Of a stretch of DNA of 64,000 nucleotides, positions 19,999-41,995 are shown one piece after another. How positions within the stretch are numbered: position 1 is the stretch's first letter; each line of letters opens with the position of its first letter. The stretch is from Escherichia phage FV3. Where the stretch lies: sequence record NC_019517.1; one strand, 5' to 3'. Under the pieces are notes generated by a model. That model made no database searches, had not been told where the DNA came from, and saw only the letters and a program-made list of their open reading frames with translations. Both the position numbers and the translations under genes were made by a program.

Positions 19999-20026
19999 TG
20001 GTGTATTTTGTTTTCAACAAGAGGGG

Positions 20027-20275
20027 GTGTCATCTATGTACAAGTCATTTTCAATCTACTCAAGACAGGCAAAACACTACACGGAGATTCTGATCACTCA
20101 GAAAAAGTCTGTAGAAGGTGAGTGGGAATATCATCATAAAATGTTGCGTCCAGACTGGGTTTTTGATAGACTTATTGCTATGATTCCTCTTGGAGAAGTA
20201 TACCCTCTGACAGGTCATAGGGATGCTTGGGATTTAATTGATTACATAGATTCATTTAAGGAGCCTGGTGTATGA
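20027..20275 (+). CDS. hypothetical protein
   Basis: 82-aa ORF. Confidence 0.45.
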   Translation: MSSMYKSFSIYSRQAKHYTEILITQKKSVEGEWEYHHKMLRPDWVFDRLIAMIPLGEVYPLTGHRDAWDLIDYIDSFKEPGV

Positions 20276-20670
20276 AGATTGAGATCACTAAAGAAGGTAA
20301 GAAAGTGTCTGGCGATTATGCAACAGTAATTCGGGATGTAATGTTTGAAGTAACCCAGATTGGTACGTCTAAGGTTGGTCAAACGGTAAGTGTGCAAGGT
20401 AATATTGCCACAGGTGAAAAGATAATCATTGTGATCAAAGGACAAGACCCTGTGGAAGGAACAGTGGGCCGAGGAGGCTACCTGTGCATTTCTGAAGAAC
20501 CGCGTATGCTGGTTGCTGATGACTCCACAGGTAAAAAGCGGGTATGTAACACGGACGAGGTGATGATTATCTATCCAGTCAACCCAGATGATCCGGCAAC
20601 ATGGATTGTGGGAAATGAAATCTTCTCTTTAGAAGAGTTATCCTTCCCAGCTCCGCGCTCTGTTCAGTAA
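20272..20670 (+). CDS. hypothetical protein (possible small acidic family member)
   Basis: 132-aa ORF starting MKIEIT. Confidence 0.45.
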   Translation: MKIEITKEGKKVSGDYATVIRDVMFEVTQIGTSKVGQTVSVQGNIATGEKIIIVIKGQDPVEGTVGRGGYLCISEEPRMLVADDSTGKKRVCNTDEVMIIYPVNPDDPATWIVGNEIFSLEELSFPAPRSVQ

Positions 20671-20709
20671 TAATTTATCTTACCAGGGACGGTAGAAGTA
20701 GGAGGTAGC

Positions 20710-20943
20710 ATGAAAGTTAAATTTCTTACAGATTTAGGGTACCCTTCCTTGGTTGACTGCGTTGGTAAAATTGTGGAAGCAAAACGACTATCTGCAAACG
20801 ATAATGTTGTCATGGTTAAGGGAAAAGATTTACTATCTGCAGGTGCAGAGTCTGGCAGGATCTCTCCTGACTATACGTATTACCTGTCTTTAAGTAATCT
20901 ACCAGAACGAGGCGGCAAAGGCCTTGAAGTTGTGGAGGAGTGA
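20710..20943 (+). CDS. small acidic protein, MKVK family
   Basis: 77 aa; MKVKFL... ending LEVVEE; RBS GGAGG. Confidence 0.5.
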   Translation: MKVKFLTDLGYPSLVDCVGKIVEAKRLSANDNVVMVKGKDLLSAGAESGRISPDYTYYLSLSNLPERGGKGLEVVEE

Positions 20944-21467
20944 CAGGTATGCTGCTAGTTGATTGGAAAGATTTTTATGGCGATAAAGACCCGAAAGCCT
21001 TTATATATAAACCTTGGAGATACTCAGAGAGTCAAATTGCTGCAATAAACCTTACAGCAAAGCGCCGAAAAATTATCGAAAGTAAATACAGGTACGCTCA
21101 GCTAGTGGCTGGTGTTTCTCCACAGGTAGAGAGTTTTGTGCTTAAACTGTACGAAAAGTTTATGAGTTACGATCTGTCATTCGTGAAGGTGGGTGAGGAT
21201 TTATCCCCTGGTAACAACGTAACACGTTGGAAAGTTTCATGCGACAAAAAACTTCCGGTAAGTATTGAGGTGTGTCGATACTGGGGGTATCATGAGTGTG
21301 GCTTTTATGACTACCATGATGTAGAAATAAAGCCACGCAATCATCTAAGCGACCCAGAAAAAGATTACTTGAAGCATGTGATTCTTTCCATGTTTGGAGG
21401 GTATATCACAGAGAAAAATAGCGAAGACAGAATATCCTTTCTTAACAGTTTGAACCGGGAGATGTAG
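20940..21467 (+). CDS. hypothetical protein
   Basis: 175-aa ORF. Confidence 0.5.
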   Translation: MTGMLLVDWKDFYGDKDPKAFIYKPWRYSESQIAAINLTAKRRKIIESKYRYAQLVAGVSPQVESFVLKLYEKFMSYDLSFVKVGEDLSPGNNVTRWKVSCDKKLPVSIEVCRYWGYHECGFYDYHDVEIKPRNHLSDPEKDYLKHVILSMFGGYITEKNSEDRISFLNSLNREM

Positions 21468-21468
21468 T

Positions 21469-21705
21469 ATGACTATAGACACTGTGCTGGTTTGGTATTG
21501 CGCATTGACCTTTCTGACAATGGTTGTTTTAGCAACTCTTTGCATCATATCTTGTAGAAAAATTAAGTTTGACGACTTTATAACTATAATCACTGCCGCA
21601 CCTTTTTGGCCTGTTGTTCTCTTCATTGCGGTTATGTGCTTGGTGGATCACTGTAAAACCGTCAGGAAAATGAAGGAGGCAGATAAGAATGGTAACAGTG
21701 ACTGA
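21469..21705 (+). CDS. small membrane protein
   Basis: 78 aa with two hydrophobic segments. Confidence 0.45.
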   Translation: MTIDTVLVWYCALTFLTMVVLATLCIISCRKIKFDDFITIITAAPFWPVVLFIAVMCLVDHCKTVRKMKEADKNGNSD

Positions 21706-21907
21706 AACTGTTTATACTGTTCTTAGGGAGATTGCATTCTATACAGACCTTAGTTCAGTATCTTCATGGGAAAAGAGTGTGTATTTAAAATGGTGCGTGA
21801 AATTAGAGGGGACCTTCTAATGTTTCAAGCCATGTTTATTGAAATGCTCTCCGGAGTATTACTGCTGGTAGCCATTTTGGGTGGTGCGGCGCTAATGTAT
21901 AATTATC

Positions 21908-22111
21908 TTGAAAAAGGGGACAGTAATGACAAAAAATAAATCCTTAGAACAGGCTGAAAACCTTCTCCACGAGCTGGTAAAGGAGTGGAAAGTTGAATAC
22001 TCAGATTTTAATGCAAGAGAGGGGGAAGATTATTGGCCTACGGAGCGCTCAGAGGGAGAGTGGTATCAAGATTTCATAGAATGGTTATATCAGACGTGCG
22101 ATGAGGGGTGA
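21908..22111 (+). CDS. hypothetical acidic protein
   Basis: 67-aa ORF; likely ATG start at 21926. Confidence 0.4.
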   Translation: MKKGTVMTKNKSLEQAENLLHELVKEWKVEYSDFNAREGEDYWPTERSEGEWYQDFIEWLYQTCDEG

Positions 22112-22569
22112 CGATGTTTGTTAAATATGTAAAAACGTGCCTCAACAACCTTGGTAGAGAGCATTGGTACACCTTGCTTGAAAAAGGAGAAATTTTAACA
22201 AAATCTGGAAAGATAACTCTGATACCTTTGGATGATAAAGACCCGTCACTACTTGTCATAGATGATTACGTTACAGGTGTGTCGTACGAGGTCTCTGTGG
22301 AGAGGTTAATACGCAGATCTGGAGGGCCTTATGACCGAAGAGAGTATGTTTTCGATTCTGTTACAGAGAAGGAGGATCCGTCTCTAATGTTTAGGATGGT
22401 AATCAGGGATATGAAATCATCTATAAATAGGATTGTAAAGGACATTAAGGAGCCTTTTAGGGTAAAAGTTAAGAAGTTTTTTGATTCTAAGATTAACATA
22501 CTCGCCGTTGTGCTAGGCGTAATTCAACTTCTGTTAATTTTGCACTATCTTGAACTGTTGTTCAAGTAG
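22108..22569 (+). CDS. hypothetical protein with C-terminal TM segment
   Basis: 153-aa ORF. Confidence 0.5.
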   Translation: MTMFVKYVKTCLNNLGREHWYTLLEKGEILTKSGKITLIPLDDKDPSLLVIDDYVTGVSYEVSVERLIRRSGGPYDRREYVFDSVTEKEDPSLMFRMVIRDMKSSINRIVKDIKEPFRVKVKKFFDSKINILAVVLGVIQLLLILHYLELLFK

Positions 22570-22577
22570 TGTGCAAC

Positions 22578-22594
22578 AAGGCACAAAGGATGTG
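22578..22594 (+). promoter_or_regulatory. intercistronic stem-loop (copy 2 of 2)
   Basis: GGCACA-AAGGA-TGTGCC immediately after stop of 22108..22569; compensatory to 15620-15635. Confidence 0.4.
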
Positions 22595-22629
22595 CCATGA
22601 TTAAATAAACTAAGAAAGAGGTAGAGAGA

Positions 22630-22977
22630 ATGCCAAAGATTAAGTCGATATTAATGTGGGCAGCTGTTGTGGCTTTTGTAGGATACTGGACTTGGGAAAC
22701 TGAATTAAAAGATATCGGGTATACCAGTCTTGAGAGCAAGGCATGCATTGGCATAACCGATGCATTCAGGCAAAATGCTATGGATCACGAATGTGTCGAT
22801 GCAGATATAGATGAGAAACTGTCTAAGGACAAGGATTTTTACCATGGTCATGCCTTGCTTGATAGTGGTGACACTGTAGAATTCTGGTCGTGGTTCCGTG
22901 AAGATGGAACAATAAAGACAGCAGTAAAGATTTCCAACAAAGAGTTAATGCTGTTGCAGCAGAAGGAGGTGCAATGA
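22630..22977 (+). CDS. hypothetical protein with N-terminal TM/signal segment
   Basis: 115-aa ORF; RBS AAGAGGTAGAGAG. Confidence 0.5.
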   Translation: MPKIKSILMWAAVVAFVGYWTWETELKDIGYTSLESKACIGITDAFRQNAMDHECVDADIDEKLSKDKDFYHGHALLDSGDTVEFWSWFREDGTIKTAVKISNKELMLLQQKEVQ

Positions 22978-23261
22978 TCTGGATATCCTACACTGATGGC
23001 ACCATGCTGTATACTGCAGGTACTAGGTATGAAGTTCAGGAGGACGATAAAAAATTTATCGTAAAAACATTTGACAAGGACGAAAACCTTTTGTTAGAAT
23101 TGACTTACAAGGTTGGGGAGGTATCTAGCATCCAATTGGATTGCGGTCATAAAGATAACCCACTCAAGAAACCTGGGGTAGGTAAAGCTTCAGAAGAACG
23201 CCTGTCTCGTATTGCAGAAAGCGTTTCTGCACAAAAATCTAAGAAGGGGACTAGAAAATGA
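22974..23261 (+). CDS. hypothetical protein
   Basis: 95-aa ORF. Confidence 0.45.
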   Translation: MIWISYTDGTMLYTAGTRYEVQEDDKKFIVKTFDKDENLLLELTYKVGEVSSIQLDCGHKDNPLKKPGVGKASEERLSRIAESVSAQKSKKGTRK

Positions 23262-23452
23262 AAAACTTACGTTTTAACACTTATTACTACAACACTTTGA
23301 ATGATTTGTATTATATTATTCGAAGTAAAAGTCCTGAAACAGTCCTATTCTGCCGCGAACCTTTCAAAGGGGAGGAAGTAGAGTCTGAGATGAATGTTAG
23401 CCATATTACCTCTTTGTTGCTCTCAGGTGCAATGGAAGAAGCAATATTCTAA
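23258..23452 (+). CDS. hypothetical protein
   Basis: 64-aa ORF. Confidence 0.4.
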   Translation: MKNLRFNTYYYNTLNDLYYIIRSKSPETVLFCREPFKGEEVESEMNVSHITSLLLSGAMEEAIF

Positions 23453-23470
23453 ACCAGGCGGGAGGGTTTT

Positions 23471-23656
23471 ATGAAGCACTATTGCCTGTTTGGTAGGATG
23501 GGTGTAGAGTGTGATTGGGTTTTCTTAAAACTTGTCAGCATCCGAGAGTCAATCCCAGAGGAAGAGCAAGAAAGTGAGCTGATGTCATGGATCAGCTATT
23601 ACGGCAACACTTTCCGGTATGTCAAAATGGAAGGGCTGCCAAGCGAGGATGATTGA
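23471..23656 (+). CDS. hypothetical protein
   Basis: 61-aa ORF. Confidence 0.4.
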   Translation: MKHYCLFGRMGVECDWVFLKLVSIRESIPEEEQESELMSWISYYGNTFRYVKMEGLPSEDD

Positions 23657-23751
23657 TTATGATTGCATCAATATTAACGTTTATGGGTGGCGTGGCGGTC
23701 GGATTCATTATTTGCCTGTTTATAGTGATTATGTCTATGCGAGGCTGACTT

Positions 23752-24036
23752 ATGAAACTGTTCGAGTGGTTTAAAAAGTTTAAATACCGGGCCGTTGCTG
23801 TATCGAAATGGACTGTCCGCTGGGTGGACAATGATGGAACACAAATTCCAGGTGATCAGGATACCGGATACTGGGTTATGATGGAGAACGGATTTGGGAA
23901 AAGGAAGTTTAAATGTGTTGGTGCTCCTACCCTTTTAAATGTTAGAAGTGTGCCAGGGTACAGCACTCTGGTTGTTTGGGAGCTATCCGGTGTTCCTCCT
24001 GCCAATGTGCAATACTTGCCAAATTCAGAAAAATAA
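23752..24036 (+). CDS. hypothetical protein
   Basis: 94-aa ORF. Confidence 0.45.
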   Translation: MKLFEWFKKFKYRAVAVSKWTVRWVDNDGTQIPGDQDTGYWVMMENGFGKRKFKCVGAPTLLNVRSVPGYSTLVVWELSGVPPANVQYLPNSEK

Positions 24037-24048
24037 AAGGAGAAAATA

Positions 24049-24333
24049 ATGAGCAATGGTATTAGCAACAATGCTGCAGAGTTTAAAGTGATCTGTAAAG
24101 GCACTTATTGGATAGTGAAACAGAAGGTGTACCTATTCGGTTTCATACCGTTTTGGCAGAGATTTTGCTGGGGAGCTAACGAGCTTAAGAGATACGCCAC
24201 CAAGGCTATGGCACTTATTGGTATAGCTGAATACATTGCTGCCAGGGACAGAGAGGGGAAAACTTGTTACTACACTGCTGACGAGATTCGTAACAGTGTT
24301 TACGTTCCACAACCGCCCGATGGAGACCGCTGA
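24049..24333 (+). CDS. hypothetical protein
   Basis: 94-aa ORF; RBS AAGGAG. Confidence 0.45.
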   Translation: MSNGISNNAAEFKVICKGTYWIVKQKVYLFGFIPFWQRFCWGANELKRYATKAMALIGIAEYIAARDREGKTCYYTADEIRNSVYVPQPPDGDR

Positions 24334-24557
24334 TGAAAGTGAAAGTTTTAGATTCAAACTTCTATATTGGTCAAGAGCCTTTAGTTGGAAAAGTGTTTAC
24401 CGCTATCCCTAACGAAGATTATCCTGACCTTTTAAAAATAAAAGGGGAAGATCTTATTGCCGCTGGCGCGTCTCAGGAATGCTTTGACAGTCAGTGGGCC
24501 TACAACTTTGCCCTAGGGGAGGATGTGGAGATAGTGGAGGACGATTATGAAGGTTAA
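24333..24557 (+). CDS. small acidic protein, MKVK family
   Basis: 74 aa, MKVKVLDSNFYIGQ...; tandem paralog of next gene. Confidence 0.5.
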   Translation: MKVKVLDSNFYIGQEPLVGKVFTAIPNEDYPDLLKIKGEDLIAAGASQECFDSQWAYNFALGEDVEIVEDDYEG

Positions 24558-24801
24558 AATTCTTGACTCTAACGTCTACTTGGGACAATCATTCCTGAAG
24601 GGAAAGGTAGTACCTGCTGTATACTTCGAAGGGTTGCCGTGGGATGATCCTGTGCGGCAAAATCACAGCTATGTAGGCCACAATGTGGTGTTCATTTTGG
24701 GATCAGACCTGATCGCGGCTGGTGCTCCGGAATATTATTTCGGAGAGGACTCGTATTATGCCTTTGGGGTAGGGTCAGATGCAGATATTTTAGAGCCGTG
24801 A
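24547..24801 (+). CDS. small acidic protein, MKVK family
   Basis: 84 aa, MKVKILDSNVYLGQ... Confidence 0.5.
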   Translation: MKVKILDSNVYLGQSFLKGKVVPAVYFEGLPWDDPVRQNHSYVGHNVVFILGSDLIAAGAPEYYFGEDSYYAFGVGSDADILEP

Positions 24802-25212
24802 TTGGGGACTGTTGTGAAAAATAAACTGTTCAAAGTTACAATGAAAATTCGCGGAGCTTGGAGCGTAAAGCAAGGGCGTATCCCGGAATTTGAGAAAGAC
24901 TTCTACGTAGTCTCCACCTCTGAAGAGGCTGCATGCTGGCAGGCTGGCTATGCCTATGCAAGAACTTGGTACGAAGGGTACCAAACTGGGGGCTATGACG
25001 GAGAAATTGTCAGTAAGGGTGTGGAAGAAATTAATGTGTTGACAAGTGAAAAAGTTTTTGTTATAGTGCATCCTGATTCCAGAGTGAAGCATTACTGGAA
25101 TGCCAGAACAAAAACCTGGACACCATTTGCAGATTCTGCTACACCACTTTTAAACCAGAAAGCTCTTGACTCTGCCCCGAGCTACGGGGTTGTTGAAGAA
25201 AAAATAAGCTGA
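24802..25212 (+). CDS. hypothetical protein (paralog of 27016..27411)
   Basis: Shares HP.S...YW....WTP motif with 27016..27411; start uncertain (ATG at 24841). Confidence 0.45.
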   Translation: MGTVVKNKLFKVTMKIRGAWSVKQGRIPEFEKDFYVVSTSEEAACWQAGYAYARTWYEGYQTGGYDGEIVSKGVEEINVLTSEKVFVIVHPDSRVKHYWNARTKTWTPFADSATPLLNQKALDSAPSYGVVEEKIS

Positions 25213-25229
25213 AATAGTGGGGTACTTAC

Positions 25230-25520
25230 ATGATGGATTTAGTTTTGGATACTGATAACACCGAATCGTTTAAAAAAGATGGTGTAATAAGCATGGACCA
25301 ATCCTGCCATGCCAAGATTGACTCAAAATGGACCTACAAGTTTGACGGTGAGATCTTCGCAAATGATGAGAAGGTTGTGGATGCTGTAGCCATTTTAAAC
25401 GCTTTAGGGTATGACCCTGTGAACTCATTGATCAAGGATCCTGTTGAGTTTGCAGAGTATGTTCGTAAAATGGCAGATCTTGCAGTAGATATTTTAAAAA
25501 CTATCGACGACAAGCTGTAA
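25230..25520 (+). CDS. hypothetical acidic protein
   Basis: 96-aa ORF. Confidence 0.45.
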   Translation: MMDLVLDTDNTESFKKDGVISMDQSCHAKIDSKWTYKFDGEIFANDEKVVDAVAILNALGYDPVNSLIKDPVEFAEYVRKMADLAVDILKTIDDKL

Positions 25521-25526
25521 AAACTG

Positions 25527-25555
25527 TTGACACAACATTTGATCTTTAGTATCAT
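25527..25555 (+). promoter_or_regulatory. sigma70-like promoter (TTGACA-17-TATCAT) upstream of hpf-like gene
   Basis: TTGACA 25527-25532, TATCAT 25550-25555; followed by hairpin 25564-25584 and RBS AAGGAG. Confidence 0.5.
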
Positions 25556-25602
25556 TATTTCCAAAGAGGGTTTGGTTCCCTCTTCTTTAAAAGGAGCACG
25601 TT

Positions 25603-25920
25603 ATGCAGATTGAAATTACTGGCAACGTAGAGATCACTGAAGGTATGGTGTCTTTCATTTCCCACAAAATGTCCAAACTGGAGCGTTTGCACCCATCTGC
25701 CAACTATGCACGTGTGAGTGTAAAAGTTGAAAATGATCACCAGGAAGTTATGGCTTTTATTTTTGACAATTCTGGGAAAGAAGTTATCGCCAAAGCTAAA
25801 GGTAGCGATGCTTACGAGGCAACTGACCGTATGGTGGATGTTGCAGCACGCCAGTTGGCTAAATGCGGTGGAAAGAAAGGTAAGGGAAAAGGTAAAGTAA
25901 AGATTGACTTTTGGGATTGA
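25603..25920 (+). CDS. hpf: ribosome hibernation promoting factor homolog (HPF/RaiA/YfiA family)
   Basis: 105 aa; MQIEITGNVEITE...KLERL...VSVKVE...AKAKGSDAYEATDRMVDVAARQLAK aligns along its length with bacterial HPF as recalled; Lys/Gly-rich tail. Confidence 0.75.
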   Translation: MQIEITGNVEITEGMVSFISHKMSKLERLHPSANYARVSVKVENDHQEVMAFIFDNSGKEVIAKAKGSDAYEATDRMVDVAARQLAKCGGKKGKGKGKVKIDFWD

Positions 25921-26057
25921 GGTGCTACAATGAGTATGATTAAGAAATTAGTCCCAAATGTAGAGATTGCATGCTTTGAAATTATGTTTGCAATCGCAGT
26001 TGTAGTTAATGTGTTAGGTTACGACTATTAATATCAAATAATTGAGGAGACCTCTAA

Positions 26058-26327
26058 ATGAAAATTAAATTATTCAAAACTGAGCTGGCAGACAAAAACT
26101 GCGGACTGGTTGAAGGCATGATCGTTGAAGCACAACCAGTGGACTACATGAAGGTGGTTCGTGATGCTCTGGGTGAAGGTTTTGATCTGATGGAGCCAGC
26201 TCTGCGAGAAGATGTCATCGAGATGGCTAAAAAGCACACACCTGAAGGCTTGGTAGTGTTTGTTGCTCCAGGTAACGGAGAAGAGTTGATTGTAACTCCG
26301 GATGTGTATGAGGTTGTAGAGGAGTAA
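26058..26327 (+). CDS. small acidic protein, MKVK family
   Basis: 89 aa, MKIKLF... ending YEVVEE; RBS GAGGAGA. Confidence 0.5.
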   Translation: MKIKLFKTELADKNCGLVEGMIVEAQPVDYMKVVRDALGEGFDLMEPALREDVIEMAKKHTPEGLVVFVAPGNGEELIVTPDVYEVVEE

Positions 26328-26415
26328 TCTTGGGTTAGCCATACTTCCTCGACAAGAAAGGTTTGTAATTATTTGTGGGAAAGGAATCCCCATCTCTTAC
26401 CAGAGGTGATACTGT

Positions 26416-26679
26416 ATGATTGTTTATTTTAAAACTTCAGGTGGATACCCTGATTCTCAAAGCTTGATTGGAAAAACGTGCACAGCATACTCGCCTCTTG
26501 ATGATGAGGTAAGTGATACCCTACGAAATATGTATCGGATTGATCCACAAGAAGCTTTTGATCAGAACCTTGTATTTGTCAAGGGCTCAGACATGAAGTC
26601 TTTGGGGGCATTTCCTGAAGCAGATGATAATGCTGTTTATTCGTTTATGACCCCTTTTGAAGCTATGGTTGTTGGGTGA
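26416..26679 (+). CDS. small acidic protein (probable family member)
   Basis: 87-aa ORF. Confidence 0.45.
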   Translation: MIVYFKTSGGYPDSQSLIGKTCTAYSPLDDEVSDTLRNMYRIDPQEAFDQNLVFVKGSDMKSLGAFPEADDNAVYSFMTPFEAMVVG

Positions 26680-26683
26680 GAAT

Positions 26684-27016
26684 ATGAAAGTACGCTTTAT
26701 TGGTGAAACAATTCCTGTGCATCTCCGGTCGCCTGAGGATTCTGCAGATCTTGCATCTCAAAAGGCCAGAGGGTATGATAAGAAAGTAATCTCAACCGAT
26801 GTAGAGCTTGAGGCTACCAGTCTGCCTGACCCTGCTGCATTCTTTAATCATTATGGATACTATTTCAGCAATCTGATGAATATCGGTGAGCTTGTGTTTA
26901 TTAGTGGTGGAGAAATAGTTAGCAAGCTTGGCGGCGATCCGGATGTCTTTCATGAAACCTGCCCTTTTGCATTTGTGGTAGGTTCAGATGTGGAAGTTAT
27001 TGAGGAGGTGCGGTAA
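26684..27016 (+). CDS. small acidic protein (probable family member)
   Basis: ATG at 26684 (MKVRFIGE...), ends VEVIEEVR. Confidence 0.45.
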   Translation: MKVRFIGETIPVHLRSPEDSADLASQKARGYDKKVISTDVELEATSLPDPAAFFNHYGYYFSNLMNIGELVFISGGEIVSKLGGDPDVFHETCPFAFVVGSDVEVIEEVR

Positions 27017-27411
27017 TGGTAAGTCTATACCGTGTTGAGTATAGCTCAGATACTGTATACAACGTAAGAAGCAAAGATCGTAGCGACAGAGTGCAAGAAA
27101 TGTATGTTCTTGCCGACAGTCCGTTATCTGCAGCGTTTAAGGCAGGAGCTCTTGCATCTCGTTGGAAATTCGAGGGTGGATCTTTCTATGAAGAAACTCT
27201 TGAAGATTCTGTTGTTATTTCTTCTGTAGAGGTTTCAACTGACTACGAAGGGAAAAAGTTCGTAATGCGGCACCCACACAGCAACATTGCGTACTACTGG
27301 GATGTTCTGAACAACGAGTGGACTCCAGATCTTCAGAAGGCCACTGTTCTGACTCCGTTCTTGGCAGATAAGTTCCCACCAGAAGGTAATTTATCTGCAC
27401 TGTTTCAGTAA
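27016..27411 (+). CDS. hypothetical protein (paralog of 24802..25212)
   Basis: 131 aa; shared HPHSNIAYYW...WTP motif. Confidence 0.5.
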   Translation: MVSLYRVEYSSDTVYNVRSKDRSDRVQEMYVLADSPLSAAFKAGALASRWKFEGGSFYEETLEDSVVISSVEVSTDYEGKKFVMRHPHSNIAYYWDVLNNEWTPDLQKATVLTPFLADKFPPEGNLSALFQ

Positions 27412-27429
27412 TTTTATTCTACACAGGTG

Positions 27430-27458
27430 TTGACAACACCAACCCTGTGTGCAATAAT
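27430..27458 (+). promoter_or_regulatory. sigma70-like promoter (TTGACA-17-AATAAT)
   Basis: TTGACA 27430-27435; TGTGCAATAAT resembles an extended -10. Confidence 0.4.
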
Positions 27459-27487
27459 ACCTTCATCTTAACAAGACAGGAGACTGA

Positions 27488-27748
27488 TTGATGAAGATTA
27501 AATTGAAAAACCTTGAAATGGCAGAGGTTCAGGAAGGTGTTGATTTCCGCTCTAAAGATGGCGACATCTTAGAGGCGAATATCCCGACCTATAAGTTGAT
27601 TAAAGGTTTTGGCAACGTTCCTGAAGAGGATATTACAGACATTCTTATGATGTTGATCCTTGACGGGACCGTGTTTGTAGGTGAAGGTGAGAACGCTATT
27701 GCAATCCCAGGCCATTTTTATGAAGTAGTTGACGAAGAGGTGCTGTAA
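27488..27748 (+). CDS. small acidic protein, MKVK family
   Basis: 86 aa, MMKIKLKNLE... ending YEVVDEEVL. Confidence 0.5.
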   Translation: MMKIKLKNLEMAEVQEGVDFRSKDGDILEANIPTYKLIKGFGNVPEEDITDILMMLILDGTVFVGEGENAIAIPGHFYEVVDEEVL

Positions 27749-28099
27749 ATGAAAGTAGAGATCACAGGTTTTGATATGAATGTGGTTCCGGAAGATATTT
27801 TAGCTAAACTTCCGGAAGGTTTTGGTAACGGTGTTGTGGTGGATGCTGTCCCTCCTACCAAAGACATTCTGCTGCAGTATGGTGTAGCAGAGGAAGATGT
27901 CGATAAAGTTCTTACAATGATGGCAATAGACCGTGTTGTCGTTGTTAAAGGTCTTGAAGGTTTTGATGACGATCCTCTGATTATTCGTGGTGATGACTAT
28001 CGCATCATCGACAACGAAGGCCAAGAGTTCTACGAACCTTCTGCTGAAGATGTTCTTAACTTACTACTGGAAGCAGGCACCGAAGAGGAGGAAGAATAA
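27749..28099 (+). CDS. small acidic protein, MKVK family
   Basis: 116 aa, MKVEITGFDM..., poly-Glu C-terminus. Confidence 0.5.
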   Translation: MKVEITGFDMNVVPEDILAKLPEGFGNGVVVDAVPPTKDILLQYGVAEEDVDKVLTMMAIDRVVVVKGLEGFDDDPLIIRGDDYRIIDNEGQEFYEPSAEDVLNLLLEAGTEEEEE

Positions 28100-28428
28100 T
28101 GAAAATTGATCCGTTACTAAAGGCTCGTGCAGAAAAAGCATACACTATCAAGCTGACCTCTCTGGTCCCTACTTGTCATCCGGATGTAGGTTGGCCTGAA
28201 GGCCTGGTAGAGGGGACTGTAACAGCTGCATACCTTCCTAACATCAAATACCTCATGGAGATCTTGGAGATGGATGAGGAAACGGCAGAACAGTTCCAGT
28301 TAGACATGAAGCAAAGTGGGACTCTGGTTATTCACGGGTGGTATAATACTAAAGATGCAGAAGATCCCCTGGTAACTTCTAATCTGGCATATGAAATCTT
28401 AGGACCTTTGAACTTGGGGGAAGACTAA
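28099..28428 (+). CDS. hypothetical acidic protein
   Basis: 109-aa ORF, ATGA-coupled to neighbours. Confidence 0.45.
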   Translation: MKIDPLLKARAEKAYTIKLTSLVPTCHPDVGWPEGLVEGTVTAAYLPNIKYLMEILEMDEETAEQFQLDMKQSGTLVIHGWYNTKDAEDPLVTSNLAYEILGPLNLGED

Positions 28429-28715
28429 TGAAAGGTTTGGTTAAGATCAAGATTAAAGACACCAAGGGAGAACTCAGCCATTTTGGAATTAACGATGGTG
28501 ACGAGCTGATCGCCCACCTGCCTACCAAGGAAGTTGTAAGCAAAGCTGTTGCCGGAGAAGAAGATGCAATGCAGGCTGCAGGTGTGGATGAAAACTATGT
28601 AGCAATGTGTATGTGCCGAGATCAGGTTGTTCTGTATAAAGCGTATCGACCAAATGGAGCACCTGAGTGGCTTGTTTTCCGACCCGAAGGGTATGAAATT
28701 TTAGAGACGCTATGA
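28428..28715 (+). CDS. hypothetical protein
   Basis: 95-aa ORF. Confidence 0.45.
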   Translation: MKGLVKIKIKDTKGELSHFGINDGDELIAHLPTKEVVSKAVAGEEDAMQAAGVDENYVAMCMCRDQVVLYKAYRPNGAPEWLVFRPEGYEILETL

Positions 28716-28804
28716 TAAATCTTGCCAAGGTTGCAACGGCACTGTTAATTATTTGCTGGATAGTGACCTTGGCACTATGTCTTGTATTTCATTAAGGGGG
28801 CTGT

Positions 28805-29068
28805 ATGAACATCCTGATGTGGGTTGTGGCAGTGGCGTTTGTTGCGTGCCTCTCTTGTTGGGTTGCTGTGAGGATTTCTATAGCCACTCTTCGGAAATTA
28901 GGGTTCTCAGAGTGGGATATTAATATCCTCTCTTTTCGCAATGAGACGATCTCAGCTGCCTTACTGTGCAAGAAGTTCAAGTGGAAACCTTGGGAGGTCA
29001 TGAGCTATCTAAGAACAGGGGATATTCCTGAGAGATTTAAAAAAGTTCTTGACGGCGAAGATAAATGA
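28805..29068 (+). CDS. small membrane protein
   Basis: 87 aa with N-terminal TM segment. Confidence 0.45.
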   Translation: MNILMWVVAVAFVACLSCWVAVRISIATLRKLGFSEWDINILSFRNETISAALLCKKFKWKPWEVMSYLRTGDIPERFKKVLDGEDK

Positions 29069-29096
29069 TAGTATAGTTACTAACAAGAGGTGAGGA

Positions 29097-29237
29097 ATGA
29101 CTGATTTTACTGAAGCTTTAATGATGGCCTTATCCGTTTTAGCGCTATCTGTGTGTTTTGGGGCGTTATTCACATCTCTGGTTAAAGTTTTACATACCAT
29201 ATTATCACCCAAGGAGCACAGTAATGACGAAGATTGA
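29097..29237 (+). CDS. micro-ORF encoding 46-aa hydrophobic peptide
   Basis: ATG after GAGGTGAGGA RBS; single TM-like segment; not in ORF track (<60 aa). Confidence 0.35.
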   Translation: MTDFTEALMMALSVLALSVCFGALFTSLVKVLHTILSPKEHSNDED

Positions 29238-29475
29238 CTTAAATGCTGGAGACCATGTTGTTGTCAAATGCATCGGAGATTATCTTGGATTCACAATCGG
29301 CAATACTTACGAGGCGGTAGTGGCGAAGGTTTACCATGATAAAGTCCTCAGCCTTGTATTTGACTGTGATGATGACGGAGATGACCGCTACGTCTGTGAG
29401 GTGCTGGCTCGTGACGATAGTGAAGACCAGAAATTCCTGGTTACCGAACTGAACGGTATTTTTGTAGAACGTTAA
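29224..29475 (+). CDS. hypothetical acidic protein
   Basis: ATG at 29224 after AAGGAG RBS (ORF track start 29158). Confidence 0.45.
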   Translation: MTKIDLNAGDHVVVKCIGDYLGFTIGNTYEAVVAKVYHDKVLSLVFDCDDDGDDRYVCEVLARDDSEDQKFLVTELNGIFVER

Positions 29476-29503
29476 TTTAAAACAATATAAGGAGACTCTT
29501 ACT

Positions 29504-29809
29504 ATGGCTAAATCTAAAGTTGAACTGTTCACCTCTCTTCCTTCTGACACTGCAGAGCGTGATCGCCTCCGTAAAACAATTGAAGAGCTGGTAGAACTTC
29601 AGCTTCAGATTAAAGATCTGAAAGACGCTATCAAGGATATTATTCTTGTCGAGAAACAGGATCACCTGTATTCTCCTAAGTTTATCAAGTCCTTGGTGGC
29701 TACCGAATTCGATATCCGCTACGAGGCTGAAAAACGTCGAGCTAAAATCGAAGAAGAGGTTGAGCACATGTCTGAAGCAGACATTCTGTTCAAACGCTCT
29801 GCAGAATAA
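29504..29809 (+). CDS. hypothetical coiled-coil protein
   Basis: 101-aa ORF; RBS AAGGAGA. Confidence 0.5.
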   Translation: MAKSKVELFTSLPSDTAERDRLRKTIEELVELQLQIKDLKDAIKDIILVEKQDHLYSPKFIKSLVATEFDIRYEAEKRRAKIEEEVEHMSEADILFKRSAE

Positions 29810-29814
29810 CGACA

Positions 29815-29840
29815 AAGAGGGGTCTTGGCCCCTCTTTTTA
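29815..29840 (+). terminator. intrinsic terminator
   Basis: AGAGGGG-TCTTG-GCCCCTCT followed by TTTTTAC. Confidence 0.55.
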
Positions 29841-29862
29841 CTATCTATGAAGGAGATCAGAA

Positions 29863-30189
29863 ATGCTAATGCCGATTACTGTAAAAGAGCTAAATGAACG
29901 TGATGCAGGGGGCCTATGGCCTGCGCGGAAAATACGCTGCGTTTATATGAAAGAGAATCTTGAGCACCTTGATCAACAGATTGCGGTGGGGGATATTTTC
30001 GAAGTTTTCTATTCTAATCGCCGCAACTGGGAAACCATTCAACCTTCAGGTTTTGTTCTTGCCAAACTTGATACCGGAGAAGTGATTATCCCTGGGCTGG
30101 ATATTGTCTTCGAAATTATCCAGGAGTGGGATCCTGATAAGATTAAATATGAAGAGTTATTCGGTGAAGGTATTATCAAGCCTGTGTGA
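29863..30189 (+). CDS. hypothetical protein
   Basis: 108-aa ORF; RBS GAAGGAGA. Confidence 0.5.
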   Translation: MLMPITVKELNERDAGGLWPARKIRCVYMKENLEHLDQQIAVGDIFEVFYSNRRNWETIQPSGFVLAKLDTGEVIIPGLDIVFEIIQEWDPDKIKYEELFGEGIIKPV

Positions 30190-30497
30190 GGTGGATTATG
30201 TCTACAACGACAGCTAAATACTCCTATATGCCAGCAACCTCCGCAGAAATAGACTTCAGTTTCGATGTGTTTCCATTGTTTGAGATAGTCCTGGCATACC
30301 CAACAACTATATCTACTCCTGAATCACTTGTGCCTATTAAGTTGCAGAACGCTATGCATTCCATGCACTACAACAATAAATGCAGGCACAGATGGTGTCA
30401 GGACGAGGAAAAAGATCTAGATAGTTTGAAAGATTTTGACAATCACCTTTTGACCCCTTTCAGCTACTCTAACCTGGACAAGCCCTCATGGGTATAG
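30186..30497 (+). CDS. hypothetical protein
   Basis: 103-aa ORF. Confidence 0.45.
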   Translation: MRWIMSTTTAKYSYMPATSAEIDFSFDVFPLFEIVLAYPTTISTPESLVPIKLQNAMHSMHYNNKCRHRWCQDEEKDLDSLKDFDNHLLTPFSYSNLDKPSWV

Positions 30498-30522
30498 CAA
30501 AATATCAAATTTAAGGCACCTA

Positions 30523-30548
30523 GGACGCTCTGTGGCGTCCTTTTCTTT
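30523..30548 (+). terminator. intrinsic terminator
   Basis: GGACGC-TCTGTG-GCGTCC followed by TTTTCTTT. Confidence 0.55.
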
Positions 30549-30710
30549 ATCTGGTGCACGATTGCATACCTTGGGTAGTTAATCTCATTACAGAGCGTTT
30601 AATAGCGGCCTGTAAACAGATCTCTATTTCGAGCGTAGCGAGAACGCACGTCCGTTTTGACCCAAATCACCATACGCTCGGATTTTAACCAAACCCTCGC
30701 GGCGTTTCTG

Positions 30711-30739
30711 TTGACACATTACCGCTCCTGTGATAGTAT
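30711..30739 (+). promoter_or_regulatory. sigma70-like promoter (TTGACA-17-TAGTAT)
   Basis: TTGACA 30711-30716, TAGTAT 30734-30739. Confidence 0.4.
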
Positions 30740-30857
30740 CCTCACATAGTTTGTAGAATATGAAATACGCAATGAAAACATTATCTGAGGTTTTAGTGGT
30801 GATCCTGATGATCATTACGTCCATAGCAGTTGTTGCCGGAATACTCACGGGTGGAAC

Positions 30858-31046
30858 ATGACCAACACACATGCACCTAAAGAGACATCTGAAGAAGCGA
30901 CTATAGAGAAAAACTTCAATTCTGAGGATTCTTTATCTCCGTCTCAGGTAGATCCTGAGGCTGATGACCTGACGTGGGAAGACATCGTAGACATCTGGTT
31001 CTCTATCATGCCTGAGCACGAAGAGTTCAGAGGTGGGAGACTATGA
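30858..31046 (+). CDS. hypothetical acidic protein
   Basis: 62-aa ORF. Confidence 0.4.
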   Translation: MTNTHAPKETSEEATIEKNFNSEDSLSPSQVDPEADDLTWEDIVDIWFSIMPEHEEFRGGRL

Positions 31047-31165
31047 AGCACCGAGCCCACATAAGTTTATCATGCTAAAGCATGGCCTGAAGAGGCAAAC
31101 GTGCATAATTCCAGTGCATTGGAACGTATAACCCTGTTCACACTCTCATTTCCAGAGGAGATTTT

Positions 31166-31381
31166 ATGAAGATAGAAATATTTGGTGGAGCTGACAACAC
31201 TCGTGGCCTGATTTACCTTGAATTCGATGAATCATACCTGCCAGAGGTGTTAAATATAGACTCTGTTGCTGAGGCTTTGGGAGTAAACCCTAAAGAACTC
31301 CACTCTTGTGCTGAGATCGATGGTTGGGAAGAGACCATGAACATTGATTTCAGTGAAGTAGAGGATGAACCGCTGGACTGA
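31166..31381 (+). CDS. small acidic protein, MKVK family
   Basis: 71 aa, MKIEIFGGADNT...; last rightward gene before strand switch. Confidence 0.5.
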   Translation: MKIEIFGGADNTRGLIYLEFDESYLPEVLNIDSVAEALGVNPKELHSCAEIDGWEETMNIDFSEVEDEPLD

Positions 31382-31593
31382 CACACAATTAGCTGCCCGG
31401 CTAAAGTGCTGGAAGCACCTATAACACATCTTTCAACTAAATTTCCTACCACCACAATCACTTACCTCCCACACATGACTGTTTGCTTGTTTAGTGAGCA
31501 GTCATTCCTTGACATTCTTGCCTATCCTGATAAAATTAAGTTCTTCTCTTTTCTTTTACCGAGTAATTCGGGTTTTCTGTTCTCTTCGGTTTG

Positions 31594-31810
31594 AAGGGGT
31601 ATGGAGATACACCTGAGTGAACAGGGTGAACAACCGAACCTTTAGCTATGGCATTAGCATGGCGAAGCGGACGGGTGACGAAAGAGGGGCCGGAGGACAC
31701 CAGTCACTGCCATATGGTATATGGGTGATAACCTGAAGAGTCTGAATAAGTGTTTAAGTACCAGTCAGAGGAAAAGGTGAATGGTAGCCGAAGGGGGAGG
31801 GGGGTTTCTT
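31594..31810. other. G/purine-rich non-coding segment, candidate structured RNA
   Basis: No ORF >=60 aa on either strand; composition unlike flanking AT-rich DNA; ends in G-run GGGGGAGGGGGG; strand undetermined. Confidence 0.3.
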
Positions 31811-32589
31811 GTATCTTTAATTTGTATACTTTATATACACTTGTAAACCAATTCAATTAGAATATGGATACCACACAAAGTGGATAGAGGCAAATATTCC
31901 CTATTAAACTTGAATTATTTATAGAAAATACCACAACACTGCTTAAGTCTTTGATTTTACACACAAATATTACAAATATCCTGCCTCTATATTTAACATA
32001 CCTGTAACATATTCCATACTCTCCCTGATTGATCAATTCCCCAACTACATCCCCATATTTTCCCTTCCTGTACTACCCCTGCCCCGCCGGGAGTCCCGTC
32101 ATATCTGGCTTTCCAGCAAATATCACACCCACAAATATCATTGCCTGAAGAGGGTTTCATCCCATAATACCTGCCTTACCCGAAGAGCGCTTCATACACC
32201 ACGTAAATTTTTTAATTGACCTGCAATTTTCCTGCAGACCCACCCCCTGCCCAGCCGGAGAGGTTGGCTTTTCCCACACAGGCCTGAAGAGTCAGCCAGA
32301 AATATCTGAAGGGGGTCCAGTTCTACCACGATTTTGACCTGACCTACAGGAGCGCTGCCAGGCGGACGAAATGGGAATACTTCTCATTCTTATAACAATT
32401 CTCAAATATCGGGGCAGTGAGGCAAATTAATAGGCGAGGCCGTTCACACAGTGGCACAACATTTGCAAGCTATTTTGCGGGGGTGAATGAGAATACCTAT
32501 CATTGTGAGAATAGTTATCATTACGGGCAATTTAACATAATACCCATTATGCGCACCACTGGCGATACATACAGGGATTGATAACATGG

Positions 32590-33230
32590 GTTACTGTTTA
32601 CGCATATAACAATTGTATTTCTTATTATTTGTGGGGGATATAGTTAGCAACCAATAGATTAGTTATTAACCTGCGGACTTCTGACCGTCTAGACGTCCAA
32701 ACGCCCACACCACAAGGATTATACATACACTCCTGCATGTAAACAGGGCCGCAAAAATGCTACCATACCAGTTTGTAAATTTTCCATGCAGCACTTGACA
32801 AAGAGGAGAAAAACTTGTCTGACACACTGGACACCTTATACACCTTATACACTTTCGATACAATAACGATTGTTATTATTTCATGTTTCACTGTTCACGT
32901 ATAGATTGTTCCTGCATAGACTGTTTACGCCTGGATAGTTTACACCTTGACAGTTTACGCAGATATGATAAGCCATGACATTCGTTTGCATAGTTGCCTT
33001 ATTGTTACAGGTAAAACAATTACATTGTTAACTATTTCTTATCTTTCTCTTAGTCATCTAATGATTCCAGTCAGTATAGTTATGTACAGTAAACATTAGA
33101 CGACTAAATATTTCTCTGATTATAGTAACCTATCGTGACAATTTCTAACTGTTTACGAAAAATGTTGACACCTGGGCAGGTTTATGTTATGCAGTTTGTA
33201 CGAATAATTATTTTGTACAGGTATTGACTA
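32590..33230. repeat. iteron-like degenerate direct repeats (TGTTTACGC family) in non-coding strand-switch region
   Basis: CTGTTTACGC / TGTTCACG / GTTTACAC / AGTTTACGC / TGTTTACG / GTTTGTACG copies, densest 32889-32960; AT-rich; no convincing ORFs. Confidence 0.4.
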
Positions 33231-33605
33231 TTCCGTTATTCTGTGGTTGGAATAAATACTTTGCAGGCTATAGAATGGTGATCGTACGTGGATTCTGAGA
33301 TCTGTCGGCTATAGTTACACCCGATTTTTCACGTAGGACACGCTTTTTGGTTTGTGTAAGTGTATGACTTATAAGGGTTTTTAATTGTTGACAGTATACT
33401 GAAGATGTGCATCAGGTTAAATTTTGTGCAATAGCTGCATTACGTGCAATTTTGGGAGAGAAAACGGGTAAAAATAGCACCGCTACCACACAATGAAAGG
33501 TTATGCAATAGCTATTTTACATGTATATTTGTACAGTGTGCGGGATTGATGGCTCGTCAATTATTCCACTTGTCAGGTAGGGCCGTTTATGGTAGGAAAA
33601 GAGCA

Positions 33606-33633
33606 GACAAAAAGAAAGGGGCCTAAGCCCCCT
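33606..33633 (-). terminator. intrinsic terminator (leftward transcripts)
   Basis: GGGGGC-TTA-GGCCCC hairpin followed by U-run on minus strand, just after stop of 33647..33910. Confidence 0.45.
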
Positions 33634-33646
33634 TGATAATGTTGTA

Positions 33647-33910
33647 TTATTTGTTGCTCATCCAGTTTTCCCAAGCTGCCTGATAATCTGCCTCACTGCG
33701 GCGGATCTCTTCTTGTTCTTCAAGCCGGATCTCTTCTTCCAGGTACCCAAGGATATCGGATTTTTTGGTCTGGCGTAACATCCAATCATCTTTTTTACGA
33801 GTAAAGATCTTGTACGCTTTCTCGCAAACCTCTTTTTTACTACCTTTTTGGACTTCAAGAACTTTGTAGGCCATGTACTGAACTAGTTTGAGCTGATCAA
33901 GACGTTTCAT
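33647..33910 (-). CDS. hypothetical protein
   Basis: 87-aa ORF. Confidence 0.5.
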   Translation of the reverse strand: MKRLDQLKLVQYMAYKVLEVQKGSKKEVCEKAYKIFTRKKDDWMLRQTKKSDILGYLEEEIRLEEQEEIRRSEADYQAAWENWMSNK

Positions 33911-33973
33911 GATGTTTACCTCTTTATGGGGTTCTGGTTTGGTGTGGGCCTTTTGGCCCGTGTCATTATCTTA

Positions 33974-34246
33974 TTACTTGCGGCGGCAAAATTCAAGCGT
34001 TTTTAATTGATAATCTTCCTCAGCCTGGAGTACAACCGCCTCGATCATTTCGTTGGCATTGGTGAAGCCATACCCTTTAGCGAACTCATCCGCGCCACCT
34101 TCGTGATCATGTTCTGCGTTCATCGCTTCCACAAAATGGAATTCCAGGTTATTGAGATAAGGGCTTGATGTTCCGTCCTCTTTTTCGATGAGATCCCAAA
34201 TAGCATTAAAACGTGATTCGACTTCTTGGTTAATCCAGCTTGACAC
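33974..34246 (-). CDS. hypothetical acidic protein
   Basis: 90-aa ORF. Confidence 0.5.
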   Translation of the reverse strand: MSSWINQEVESRFNAIWDLIEKEDGTSSPYLNNLEFHFVEAMNAEHDHEGGADEFAKGYGFTNANEMIEAVVLQAEEDYQLKTLEFCRRK

Positions 34247-34586
34247 GGCGTTTTCCTCTCTTCTGGTTGTTGTGTGGGCACTTTTGCCCCTTCAAGGTAA
34301 ATGCTACCCCACCACCCGGCAGATGTCAACGGTTTTTATAGTTTTTTATATAACGGGCACCCCTGGTGATTGTCTCCCCCCGTCGCCAGGTGCCGCCCGT
34401 GAAACAAGTATAACAAAAAACAGGACCATTGCAAGCCCTGTTTATTATCTTAAAACCAGGTGCCAACCGTTTCCAATAGATCACTGACTATCAGGACAAT
34501 ACTGATCAGCACATACCTAACCATAAAGGGAAAGATCGCCAACATTGCCGCCACGATCCCCATGGTGATAATTATCTTTCTCATGA

Positions 34587-34871
34587 TTAACGGGTCACGT
34601 AAGTTTTCCCGTTTACTGTTATCGGCAGATCCTCCAGGTCTGGATCTTCTTTAAGGTCGCGAGCAAGCTCACCGCACCGGATGCCCTCGAATCCGTAGTA
34701 CTCTGTTGTGCCGTCCTGGAAAGTTTTTGCGGCAAGGCATAACCGATAAGTAACACCGATTTGATTGACGGCATGGATATCAGTTAGATCTACCTCTTTT
34801 GCCAGCTCTTTAGCCATTACAGGCGCATTAAGTCCAATAACCAGGGCAACCACTGCGATCATCTTTTTCAT
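34587..34871 (-). CDS. small secreted protein with signal peptide
   Basis: 94 aa; N-terminal MKKMIAVVALVIGLNAPVMA. Confidence 0.5.
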   Translation of the reverse strand: MKKMIAVVALVIGLNAPVMAKELAKEVDLTDIHAVNQIGVTYRLCLAAKTFQDGTTEYYGFEGIRCGELARDLKEDPDLEDLPITVNGKTYVTR

Positions 34872-34960
34872 GTTGTCTATCCTCTTTCTGCTGCGTTTAA
34901 GGCGGTTACCGCCGCCTGTTTATGCTTTGTTAGTTAATGGGGCGTACGGTATAGATTAAA

Positions 34961-35185
34961 CTATGCTGTACGCTCAACTATAACAACGGCTTGAGGGATC
35001 TCACCTTCCACCACTATCAAGGCTTTTTTCTGCGTGATAGATATCTTTACCCGCTTCAGCGTGGCGGTAAAATCTTTCATTTCGTCACGTGGTGTTTTAG
35101 TGCAATACCAGATCTCAGGCTTACCTATTTGCAAGCCGCGTAAAAATTCCGTTTTGCCTGTTTTGTTCGTGATCATTTGTTTCAC
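34961..35185 (-). CDS. hypothetical protein
   Basis: 74-aa ORF. Confidence 0.45.
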   Translation of the reverse strand: MKQMITNKTGKTEFLRGLQIGKPEIWYCTKTPRDEMKDFTATLKRVKISITQKKALIVVEGEIPQAVVIVERTA

Positions 35186-35363
35186 CTTACCCGATACCGT
35201 GGGAAGATAGGATCATGTTAGCCATAGTTGCAACCACTCCAACCGATAATGCCATGCCAACTACTACAACCGTGAAAATTTTTTCTAACATGATTCCACC
35301 CTCATTAATGGGCGTTGCCTTATTGCCCCGCCCTATGTCGTACACTTTTCTTCTGATCCTCTG

Positions 35364-35627
35364 TTAGCATACGATAGCGATCACGCCGCCACAAATAAAA
35401 GGTAAATCAAAACTGTCTAACTTGCAAGCTATTTTTAAACGAAAGGCAACATAAAAGAAAAGTTGCAAACAATCGATCATTGTGTTAGCTGTTGAAACGC
35501 TGCCAGCATTAAACACCACCCCGCCCACGGCGTTAAACGTTGCGTTACTCACGAAAGTGAAAAGGCAAGCGATCACGGTGGCGATCATAATGTTGCGTTT
35601 TGTCAATCTGTAAATGATGTTTTTCAT
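35364..35627 (-). CDS. small membrane protein
   Basis: 87 aa, two hydrophobic segments. Confidence 0.45.
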   Translation of the reverse strand: MKNIIYRLTKRNIMIATVIACLFTFVSNATFNAVGGVVFNAGSVSTANTMIDCLQLFFYVAFRLKIACKLDSFDLPFICGGVIAIVC

Positions 35628-35696
35628 TCTGTCATGTTGGCGGCATCATTGCCGCCCTACGAAATACATTCTACCCGATTTGTAATTGTTGTCAAA

Positions 35697-35921
35697 CTAA
35701 TTTTTACAAGGGATCAGTAAACTTCTTGCTACTGCTTCGCGTAGTCCTTGACTTTTTATCAGATCTATTGTTGCAGGATGGCAAGTAAAAGCCTTTGACC
35801 ATTTTTGATCCCCTGGTTTACGGGCAAAAATGTAAACTTCCCCGTCGATTTCATCCCAACGAGTATTGCTTGTTAGTTTTTTAAGCGCCATGATGATTTC
35901 CCTTTTAGTTGTGAGCGGCAC
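35697..35921 (-). CDS. hypothetical protein
   Basis: 74-aa ORF. Confidence 0.45.
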   Translation of the reverse strand: MPLTTKREIIMALKKLTSNTRWDEIDGEVYIFARKPGDQKWSKAFTCHPATIDLIKSQGLREAVARSLLIPCKN

Positions 35922-35966
35922 TATTGCCGCCCTATGTGATACATCTTAAACTAATTTAAAACGTTG

Positions 35967-36200: not shown

Positions 36201-36266
36201 GATGATTCACCTATCTTTATTTTTTTTTCATAGTTTCAGGAGGGGCCTTTTTCGGCCCCGCCAGGC

Positions 36267-37083: not shown

Positions 37084-37121
37084 TGCTCCTTTTTGCACTG
37101 ATTATTTTAACAGGGTTTAAA

Positions 37122-41989: not shown

Positions 41990-41995
41990 CAATTT

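Follow-up and report, generated by a model that had tools for sequence, protein, structure and literature searches.

A homolog of the ribosome hibernation promoting factor in Escherichia phage FV3: family membership, purifying selection and a proposed action on host ribosomes

Introduction

Why does a phage carry a gene that resembles a bacterial ribosome hibernation factor, and what would its product do to host ribosomes? The window analysed here, 64,000 nucleotides of Escherichia phage FV3 (NC_019517.1), contains a 105-codon open reading frame at 25603..25920 (+), which starts with ATG and whose translation is identical to the 105 amino acids that a preliminary description had read as a phage homolog of HPF/RaiA. 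The gene, called hpf below, is already known: it has been annotated since 2006 and was published in 2019 as a virus-encoded HPF. The rV5 GenBank record of 2006 (DQ832317) annotates its counterpart, ORF144, as "sigma 54 modulation factor", Mizuno et al. 2019 (Nat Commun) list the rV5 protein, ABI79209, among virus-encoded ribosomal proteins (PMC6375957), and Mathieu et al. 2020 report that their rV5 isolates carry hpf, "as already described" (PMC6969025). The novelty implied by the preliminary description therefore does not hold, the protein being 98% identical to rV5 ORF144, and the locus carries little weight as a discovery because it is annotated in more than 100 genomes and was published in 2019.

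A literature search for later functional work on phage HPF yielded only Mizuno 2019 and Mathieu 2020, and it turned up no structure, no knockout phenotype and no data on expression during infection for any phage HPF. The gene is among the most strongly constrained small genes of the rV5 cluster, yet the lone functional test of its product was negative, under conditions that possibly stripped the protein from ribosomes. The use that phages make of the hibernation-factor fold, which could be to protect, to silence or to wake ribosomes, bears on the infection of non-growing hosts and on therapy with rV5-like phages. Beyond prior work, the present analysis adds the purifying selection on the gene, its isolated clade, the loss of K80 with R83, K87 and K91 kept, and the disordered, longer tail of the protein.

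An HPF/YfiA-family protein

The phage open reading frame encodes a genuine homolog of the HPF/YfiA family, and this assignment is fully supported. PF02482 (Ribosomal_S30AE) is its sole Pfam match, covering residues 3-88 with 48.3 bits against a cutoff of 23.7 (E=1.8e-12), and TIGR00741, the HPF/YfiA family model, gives 45.9, above its curated cutoff of 40.9. When solved structures are searched with phmmer, E. coli HPF chains are the best matches (2rql, E=5.5e-12, aligned over residues 1-89), and BLASTP aligns the protein with E. coli HPF at 43% identity over 88 aa (E=5e-18), with indels of one residue each only. The near-invariant family columns T12, K22, G58, A63, D69, Y71 and D75 are all retained.

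The AlphaFold2 (AF2) model, built on a 24-sequence alignment, has a mean pLDDT of 83.5, and its 10-residue block means lie at 87-95 over residues 1-80. Its strands (residues 2-7, 33-42, 47-55 and 60-67) and helices (13-29 and 70-89) follow the HPF topology, and residues 90-105 are disordered. All 36 of the 36 best Foldseek matches in the PDB are HPF, YfiA or pY proteins, and the model superposes on V. cholerae HPF (4hei_A) with a TM score of 0.93 and an rmsd of 1.1 A, and on ribosome-bound E. coli HPF (6h4n_x) with an rmsd of 1.1 A. Profiles, AF2, Foldseek and dN/dS together support a core domain of beta-alpha-beta-beta-beta-alpha order, residues 1-89, at 25603..25869 (+). The preliminary description had claimed an HPF/RaiA-family homolog that aligns with E. 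coli HPF along its length, and had proposed a profile search and a structural superposition as checks; the claims are upheld by the profile HMMs, the alignments, the predicted fold and its superposition. A missing profile match or an unrelated fold, which it had named as evidence against itself, was not found, since the PF02482 and TIGR00741 scores are significant and the fold is of HPF type.

The models of the two host proteins are far from reached: the HPF equivalog NF007780 has a cutoff of 125 and yields 55.8 bits, and the RaiA/YfiA equivalog NF007654 has a cutoff of 158 and yields 17.6 bits; the phage protein is therefore a divergent member of short-HPF descent and an equivalog of neither. 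RaiA orthology, suggested by the PGAP name on many records, is rejected on the latter score and on the 25% identity that BLASTP gives with E. coli YfiA/RaiA. The long HPF class does not apply to a protein of 105 aa that has no C-terminal dimerisation domain and whose residues 90-105 are predicted to be disordered.

The gene and its upstream sequences

A sigma-70-type promoter, TTGACA-17 nt-TATCAT, lies at 25527..25555 (+) and matches the consensus at 11 of 12 positions. It is the P144 of rV5, annotated in DQ832317 at the equivalent relative position as "Sigma70-type promoter; P144", and its -35 box with the AAACTG flank is invariant in 10 of 10 aligned orthologous loci, including the lineage with 64% protein identity. 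The Shine-Dalgarno sequence AAGGAG, read from the sequence at 25591..25596 (+), stands 6 nt 5' of the ATG, and a ribosome-binding site (RBS) is annotated at the corresponding place in phage Murica. The gene thus has a sigma70-like promoter of its own and a strong RBS, as had been described before.

The leader hairpin of the preliminary description exists, but its stability is not statistically unusual. Its 7-bp stem is present at 25564..25584 (+) (AAGAGGG-tttggtt-CCCTCTT, MFE -11.3 kcal/mol), but it is a weak feature, with an energy that is like that of dinucleotide shuffles (z = -0.8; 39 of 200 shuffles are equally or more stable). The stem is partly disrupted in the close relatives A141, A6-1 and L006, is not present in the distant ortholog of the P0004 lineage and has no covariation support. 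A regulatory role of the hairpin is rejected on its likeness to shuffled sequence, its imperfect conservation and its absence from the distant ortholog.

The reading frame ends with a TGA stop codon at 25918..25920 (+), read from the sequence. Two overlapping open reading frames, 25555..25740 (-) and 25727..25900 (+), are spurious, because nucleotide differences between phages do not alter the HPF translation: against its rV5 counterpart, hpf has 18 synonymous and 0 nonsynonymous changes. Another promoter-like sequence, TTGACT-16-TACAAT with a TG extension, is found at 25904..25931 (+), matches 10 of 12 positions and overlaps the final hpf codons. The I-D-F codons of hpf contain its aTTGACTtt, and its -10 element overlaps the ATG of a 33-aa open reading frame at 25930, so the conserved "IDF" near the tail end may reflect constraint at the DNA level rather than at the protein level.

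Distribution and record names

The 4 kb around hpf match 119 phage records, nearly all of rV5-like Escherichia phages of the genus Vequintavirus, to which the window also belongs, and the closest record over this length is that of HMD-6, with 98.4% nucleotide identity. The protein is found by tblastn in 117 records with 94-100% identity in all except one, a Salmonella genome record with the host gene (42% identity), and it is identical in phages EPFV3-03/2025, VB-EcoM-WM and HMD-6. A search of IMG/VR gave 2 further close loci only, and a word-indexed protein search added close relatives only.

Orthologs in other records are labelled hpf, ribosome hibernation factor or RaiA; the last of these names, frequent among phage records, denotes the family in general and is no proof of RaiA orthology. 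In OR062525, OR062530, MT884009, MT884011 and others the ortholog is labelled "ATP-dependent protease La Type I", a name that is clearly wrong for a 105-aa protein with an S30AE domain. The label "sigma 54 modulation factor" is found in HMD-6, A6-1 and APCEc02 on the open reading frame 26058..26327 (+), two genes downstream of hpf; ECP26/ECP32-type records carry the name twice, the second time on this frame, and the genuine hpf of A6-1 and APCEc02 bears the name "hypothetical protein". A second HPF paralog, as the label on this 89-aa frame would have it, is rejected, as the frame has no Pfam match at all, and the name looks like a propagated, misplaced annotation. Another irregularity concerns 18 MG0656xx records named "Campylobacter phage" (D1, A141, C12 and others; UNVERIFIED, host C. 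jejuni), which are Vequintavirus genomes with 80-95% nucleotide identity to the window region (93.6% for D1), and whose assignment to C. jejuni looks doubtful.

Selection and origin

Over core residues 1-88, the Vequintavirus orthologs give dN/dS values of 0.01-0.04 at dS values of 0.33-0.70, and in the comparison with rV5, where the dN/dS values of 20 neighbouring genes extend from about 0 to 0.4, hpf ranks with the most constrained. Purifying selection on hpf is very strong, and the gene clearly has a function in the phage.

When 1.84 billion representatives were scanned exhaustively with HMMER, only 22 matches reached E <= 1e-3. A single one of them, P0004, is close, with about 64-65% identity, and it occupies the syntenic place in the genome of an uncultured phage of ~126-137 kb. 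The closest full-length relative after P0004 has 45% identity, and no cellular protein among the 1.84 billion representatives exceeds this value. Synonymous sites are saturated between hpf and the syntenic ortholog of the P0004 lineage, and the GC content of the gene is 42.5%, against 43.1% for the window. The phage genes form an isolated phage clade that has long been resident in phages. A "relatively recent" transfer from host to phage, suggested in PMC6375957, is not supported here, and it is disfavoured by the cellular identity of at most 45%, the GC content at phage background and the saturated synonymous sites. An ancestral phage would have captured a short HPF long ago from a gammaproteobacterial host, and the captured gene would have become the tightly conserved phage gene seen now.

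Genomic neighbourhood

The neighbours of hpf are small + strand open reading frames, in agreement with the earlier account of the gene context, and a Pfam search of eight of them gave nothing significant (sole match E=0.08, under the gathering score). No open reading frame of at least 250 aa is found from about 19.1 kb to 47.4 kb of the window, the sampled part from 22 to 30 kb is densely packed with small + strand frames, and the stretch ~20000..47000 has larger + strand genes to its left and - strand genes to its right. No tRNA genes were found in the entire 64-kb window.

Several neighbours are related to each other. The tandem pair 24333..24557 and 24547..24801 has 41% identity (E = 7e-15), the pair 24802..25212 and 27016..27411 (136 and 131 aa) has 26% identity (E = 6e-8), and a C-terminal motif is common to 24547..24801 and 26657..27016; none of the paralog-pair frames that flank hpf has a Pfam match. 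The frames 23258..23452, 23752..24036 and 24049..24333 (+) are 62-77% identical to their rV5 counterparts, with dS saturated or very high, and the genes flanking them are 95-100% identical to those of rV5. The region 23258..24333 (+) thus forms a local hypervariable or recombinant patch in the cluster.

Ribosome-contact residues

Fourteen ribosome-contact positions of enterobacterial HPF (bioRxiv 10.1101/2025.10.07.680626) were mapped onto the phage protein and are given here in E. coli HPF numbering. Five are identical (K26, E60, R83, K87 and K91), four carry substitutions that are common in the family (Q29R, H55F, H62I and T86A), and five deviate, N8 being deleted and the others being T53F, K80V, K89G and H95G. 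The deletion of N8, a single residue in the beta1-alpha1 loop, is polymorphic among phages, and V18, A6-1 and Murica keep GNNVEIT. Three of the four basic contacts that are identical in HPF and YfiA are retained, R83, K87 and K91 being kept among the alpha-2 basic residues and K80 being lost; position 80 is V80 in the phage protein and T80 in its sister lineage, and K in 17 of 24 aligned family members. T53 of HPF contacts m2G966, and its equivalent is F52 in the phage protein and R52 in the sister lineage. The replacements of K80 and T53 in both lineages count against ribosome binding.

Ribosome binding has been addressed with the rV5 protein, which differs from the present one in its last two residues. 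When it was produced in E. coli from pBAD24, mass spectrometry revealed it in the crude extract, but its peptides were not detected in 70S and 100S ribosomes from sucrose gradients at high-stringency salt (PMC6375957). The levels of 100S ribosomes were unchanged upon expression, in cells that had few of them initially, and the authors consider growth phase, a genuine loss of binding and stripping by salt as possible causes of the negative result (PMC6375957). A genuine loss is possible because the protein was in the crude extract yet undetected in 70S and 100S. The preliminary description had held that a lack of ribosome binding would speak against it, and on this point the experiment cuts both ways, the absence from high-salt ribosomes being set against the explanations by growth phase and salt. 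Maki, Yoshida and Wada in 2000 reportedly found YfiA and YhbH in crude ribosomes and not in high-salt-washed ribosomes. On that account the negative result of Mizuno et al. would be expected of a true binder as well.

The experiment could also mean that the fold has taken up another function, so that the protein does not bind ribosomes and its dsRBD-like HPF fold, together with the basic tail, binds another RNA or a protein. The failure of rV5 HPF to co-purify with ribosomes (PMC6375957) fits this explanation, as do the replacement of several contact residues, the isolated clade far under both equivalog cutoffs and the dsRNA-binding domains that Foldseek places, at E ~1e-2, beneath the HPF-family matches. 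It is nevertheless improbable, given that the most strictly kept residues, R83, K87, K91 and K26, are 16S rRNA contacts in HPF and YfiA, that the alignment with HPF is full-length and has only one-residue indels, and that stripping by high salt suffices to explain the negative experiment, as its authors note (PMC6375957).

Proposed action on host ribosomes

The reading favoured here, with a probability of about one half, is that the phage protein docks in the HPF/YfiA site on vacant 30S and 70S ribosomes in a salt-labile way, does not promote 100S formation and is made early from a host-type promoter. It is built on what was observed of family membership, fold, selection, promoter and contact residues kept or lost. 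Host RNA polymerase would transcribe hpf from the near-consensus sigma-70 promoter, and expression is probably early, judging by the promoter type. The protein would then occupy the decoding-centre cleft of vacant host 30S and 70S, in the A/P-site position of HPF and YfiA, by contacts of R83, K87 and K91 in alpha-2 and of K25 and R28 in alpha-1. It should bind more weakly than the host protein, or be released more easily by salt, because K80 is V80 and because T53, K89 and H95 are also replaced. It would idle or protect ribosomes in a 70S-type, YfiA-like manner and would not be an RMF-dependent promoter of 100S, a role that is argued against by the unchanged 100S levels with rV5 HPF (PMC6375957) and by the score of 55.8 against 125 on the HPF equivalog model.

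The preliminary description had gone further and suggested that the phage protein silences ribosomes and manipulates their dormancy, which is conjecture, as rV5 HPF was undetected in high-salt 70S and 100S and left 100S unchanged (PMC6375957). In this interpretation, early phage HPF on free 30S and 70S would lower initiation on host mRNAs and would be out-competed by phage mRNAs with strong Shine-Dalgarno sequences. HPF-family proteins do block the A and P sites (bioRxiv 10.1101/2025.10.07.680626), S. aureus HPF represses translation differentially according to PMC4889938, and hpf itself has the strong AAGGAG RBS and an early-type promoter. Such a shut-off of the host is quite unlikely all the same, as moderate expression left ribosome profiles unchanged with HPF not on the ribosomes (PMC6375957), and discrimination between host and phage mRNAs by the phage protein is without support.

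The C-terminal tail, GKKGKGKGKVKIDFWD (residues 90-105, 25870..25917 (+)), is rich in Lys and Gly, is predicted to be disordered (pLDDT < 50) and extends ~10 residues beyond the length of E. coli HPF. It has no counterpart in E. coli HPF in the alignments, in line with the earlier remark that it differs from the host protein, and the pI, 5.9 in the core alone, rises to 8.7 with the tail included. The tail ends in WD here, where most relatives have GE, and the lineage with 64% identity has a different tail, likewise basic, which ends in KWDY. A run of G differs in length by single bases in Murica and APCEc02, where the resulting frameshifts, whether genuine or introduced by sequencing, shorten the tail or change its sequence. 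If the favoured docking on vacant ribosomes holds, the extra basic tail may reach toward the mRNA channel and the RMF site, like the tail of YfiA, which runs toward the RMF site in a protein that disallows 100S formation (bioRxiv 10.1101/2025.10.07.680626).

The same tail enters an explanation of the opposite sense, in which the phage protein is a decoy against hibernation. As a weak competitor of HPF, YfiA and RMF at the ribosome, with a tail that blocks RMF, it would prevent or dissolve 100S ribosomes and keep the ribosomes of slow-growing or stationary cells available for phage mRNAs. The idea comes from Mizuno et al., with viral HPF competing with cellular homologs and so preventing ribosome dimers (PMC6375957); the greater tail length and the parallel with the YfiA tail agree with it, and the loss of K80 and K89 fits a weaker, reversible binding. 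Set against these points are the expression of rV5 HPF without discernible effect on 100S, though few were present initially (PMC6375957), the acidic end of the YfiA tail where the phage tail is basic, and the frameshifts that the extreme tail tolerates in two deposited genomes. A better infection of stationary cells by rV5-like phages than by other phages also lacks support, and the decoy is rather unlikely.

A wider formulation, which may be advanced only tentatively, is that of a retooled hibernation factor, whose core is weakened by K80V and supplemented by a basic tail, and which parks and protects ribosomes or pre-empts hibernation by RMF, HPF and YfiA. If this were true, the parking and protection would fall in the early phase in which host mRNA collapses, rV5-like phages could draw on the ribosomes present in slow-growing or stationary E. 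coli, and the protein would be the first demonstrated viral hibernation or anti-hibernation factor. K80V, T53F and the tail are concrete residue-level differences from which mutants can be made.

Comparison with known systems

The nearest known system is rV5 gp144 (ABI79209), which is 98% identical over 105 aa and differs only in its last two residues, GE in place of WD. Genomic position, promoter P144 and neighbours of rV5 gene 144 are all the same as in the window, and the two are one gene from different isolates.

E. coli short HPF (YhbH; 2RQL, 6H4N) resembles the phage protein in sequence (43% over 88 aa), in structure (rmsd 1.1 A), in the common residues K26, E60, R83, K87 and K91, and in the absence of a C-terminal dimerisation domain from both. 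The phage protein differs from it by K80V, T53F, K89G and H95G, by the one-residue deletion in the beta1-alpha1 loop, and by a Lys/Gly-rich tail that is 10 residues longer, with a pI of 8.7 against 6.5 for the host protein. Gammaproteobacterial short HPF converts RMF-induced 90S particles into 100S dimers, whereas producing the rV5 ortholog left 100S without discernible change (PMC6375957). E. coli YfiA/RaiA shares the family and fold with the phage protein, has a C-terminal extension past the HPF length and has, like it, a proposed 70S-type rather than 100S-type action; the identity with it is 25%, and its tail ends acidic (EEVEEE), whereas the phage tail is basic.

Among other phages, Cronobacter phage GAP32 (AFC21633) and Xanthomonas phage XaC1 also encode PF02482-domain proteins in large myovirus genomes. 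The GAP32 protein is described as more divergent and was placed with Firmicutes sequences (PMC6375957), and the match in XaC1 has 34% identity with E. coli HPF. Both belong to phrog_8990, whereas the rV5 clade is phrog_12469, and they represent independent acquisitions of the family by phages.
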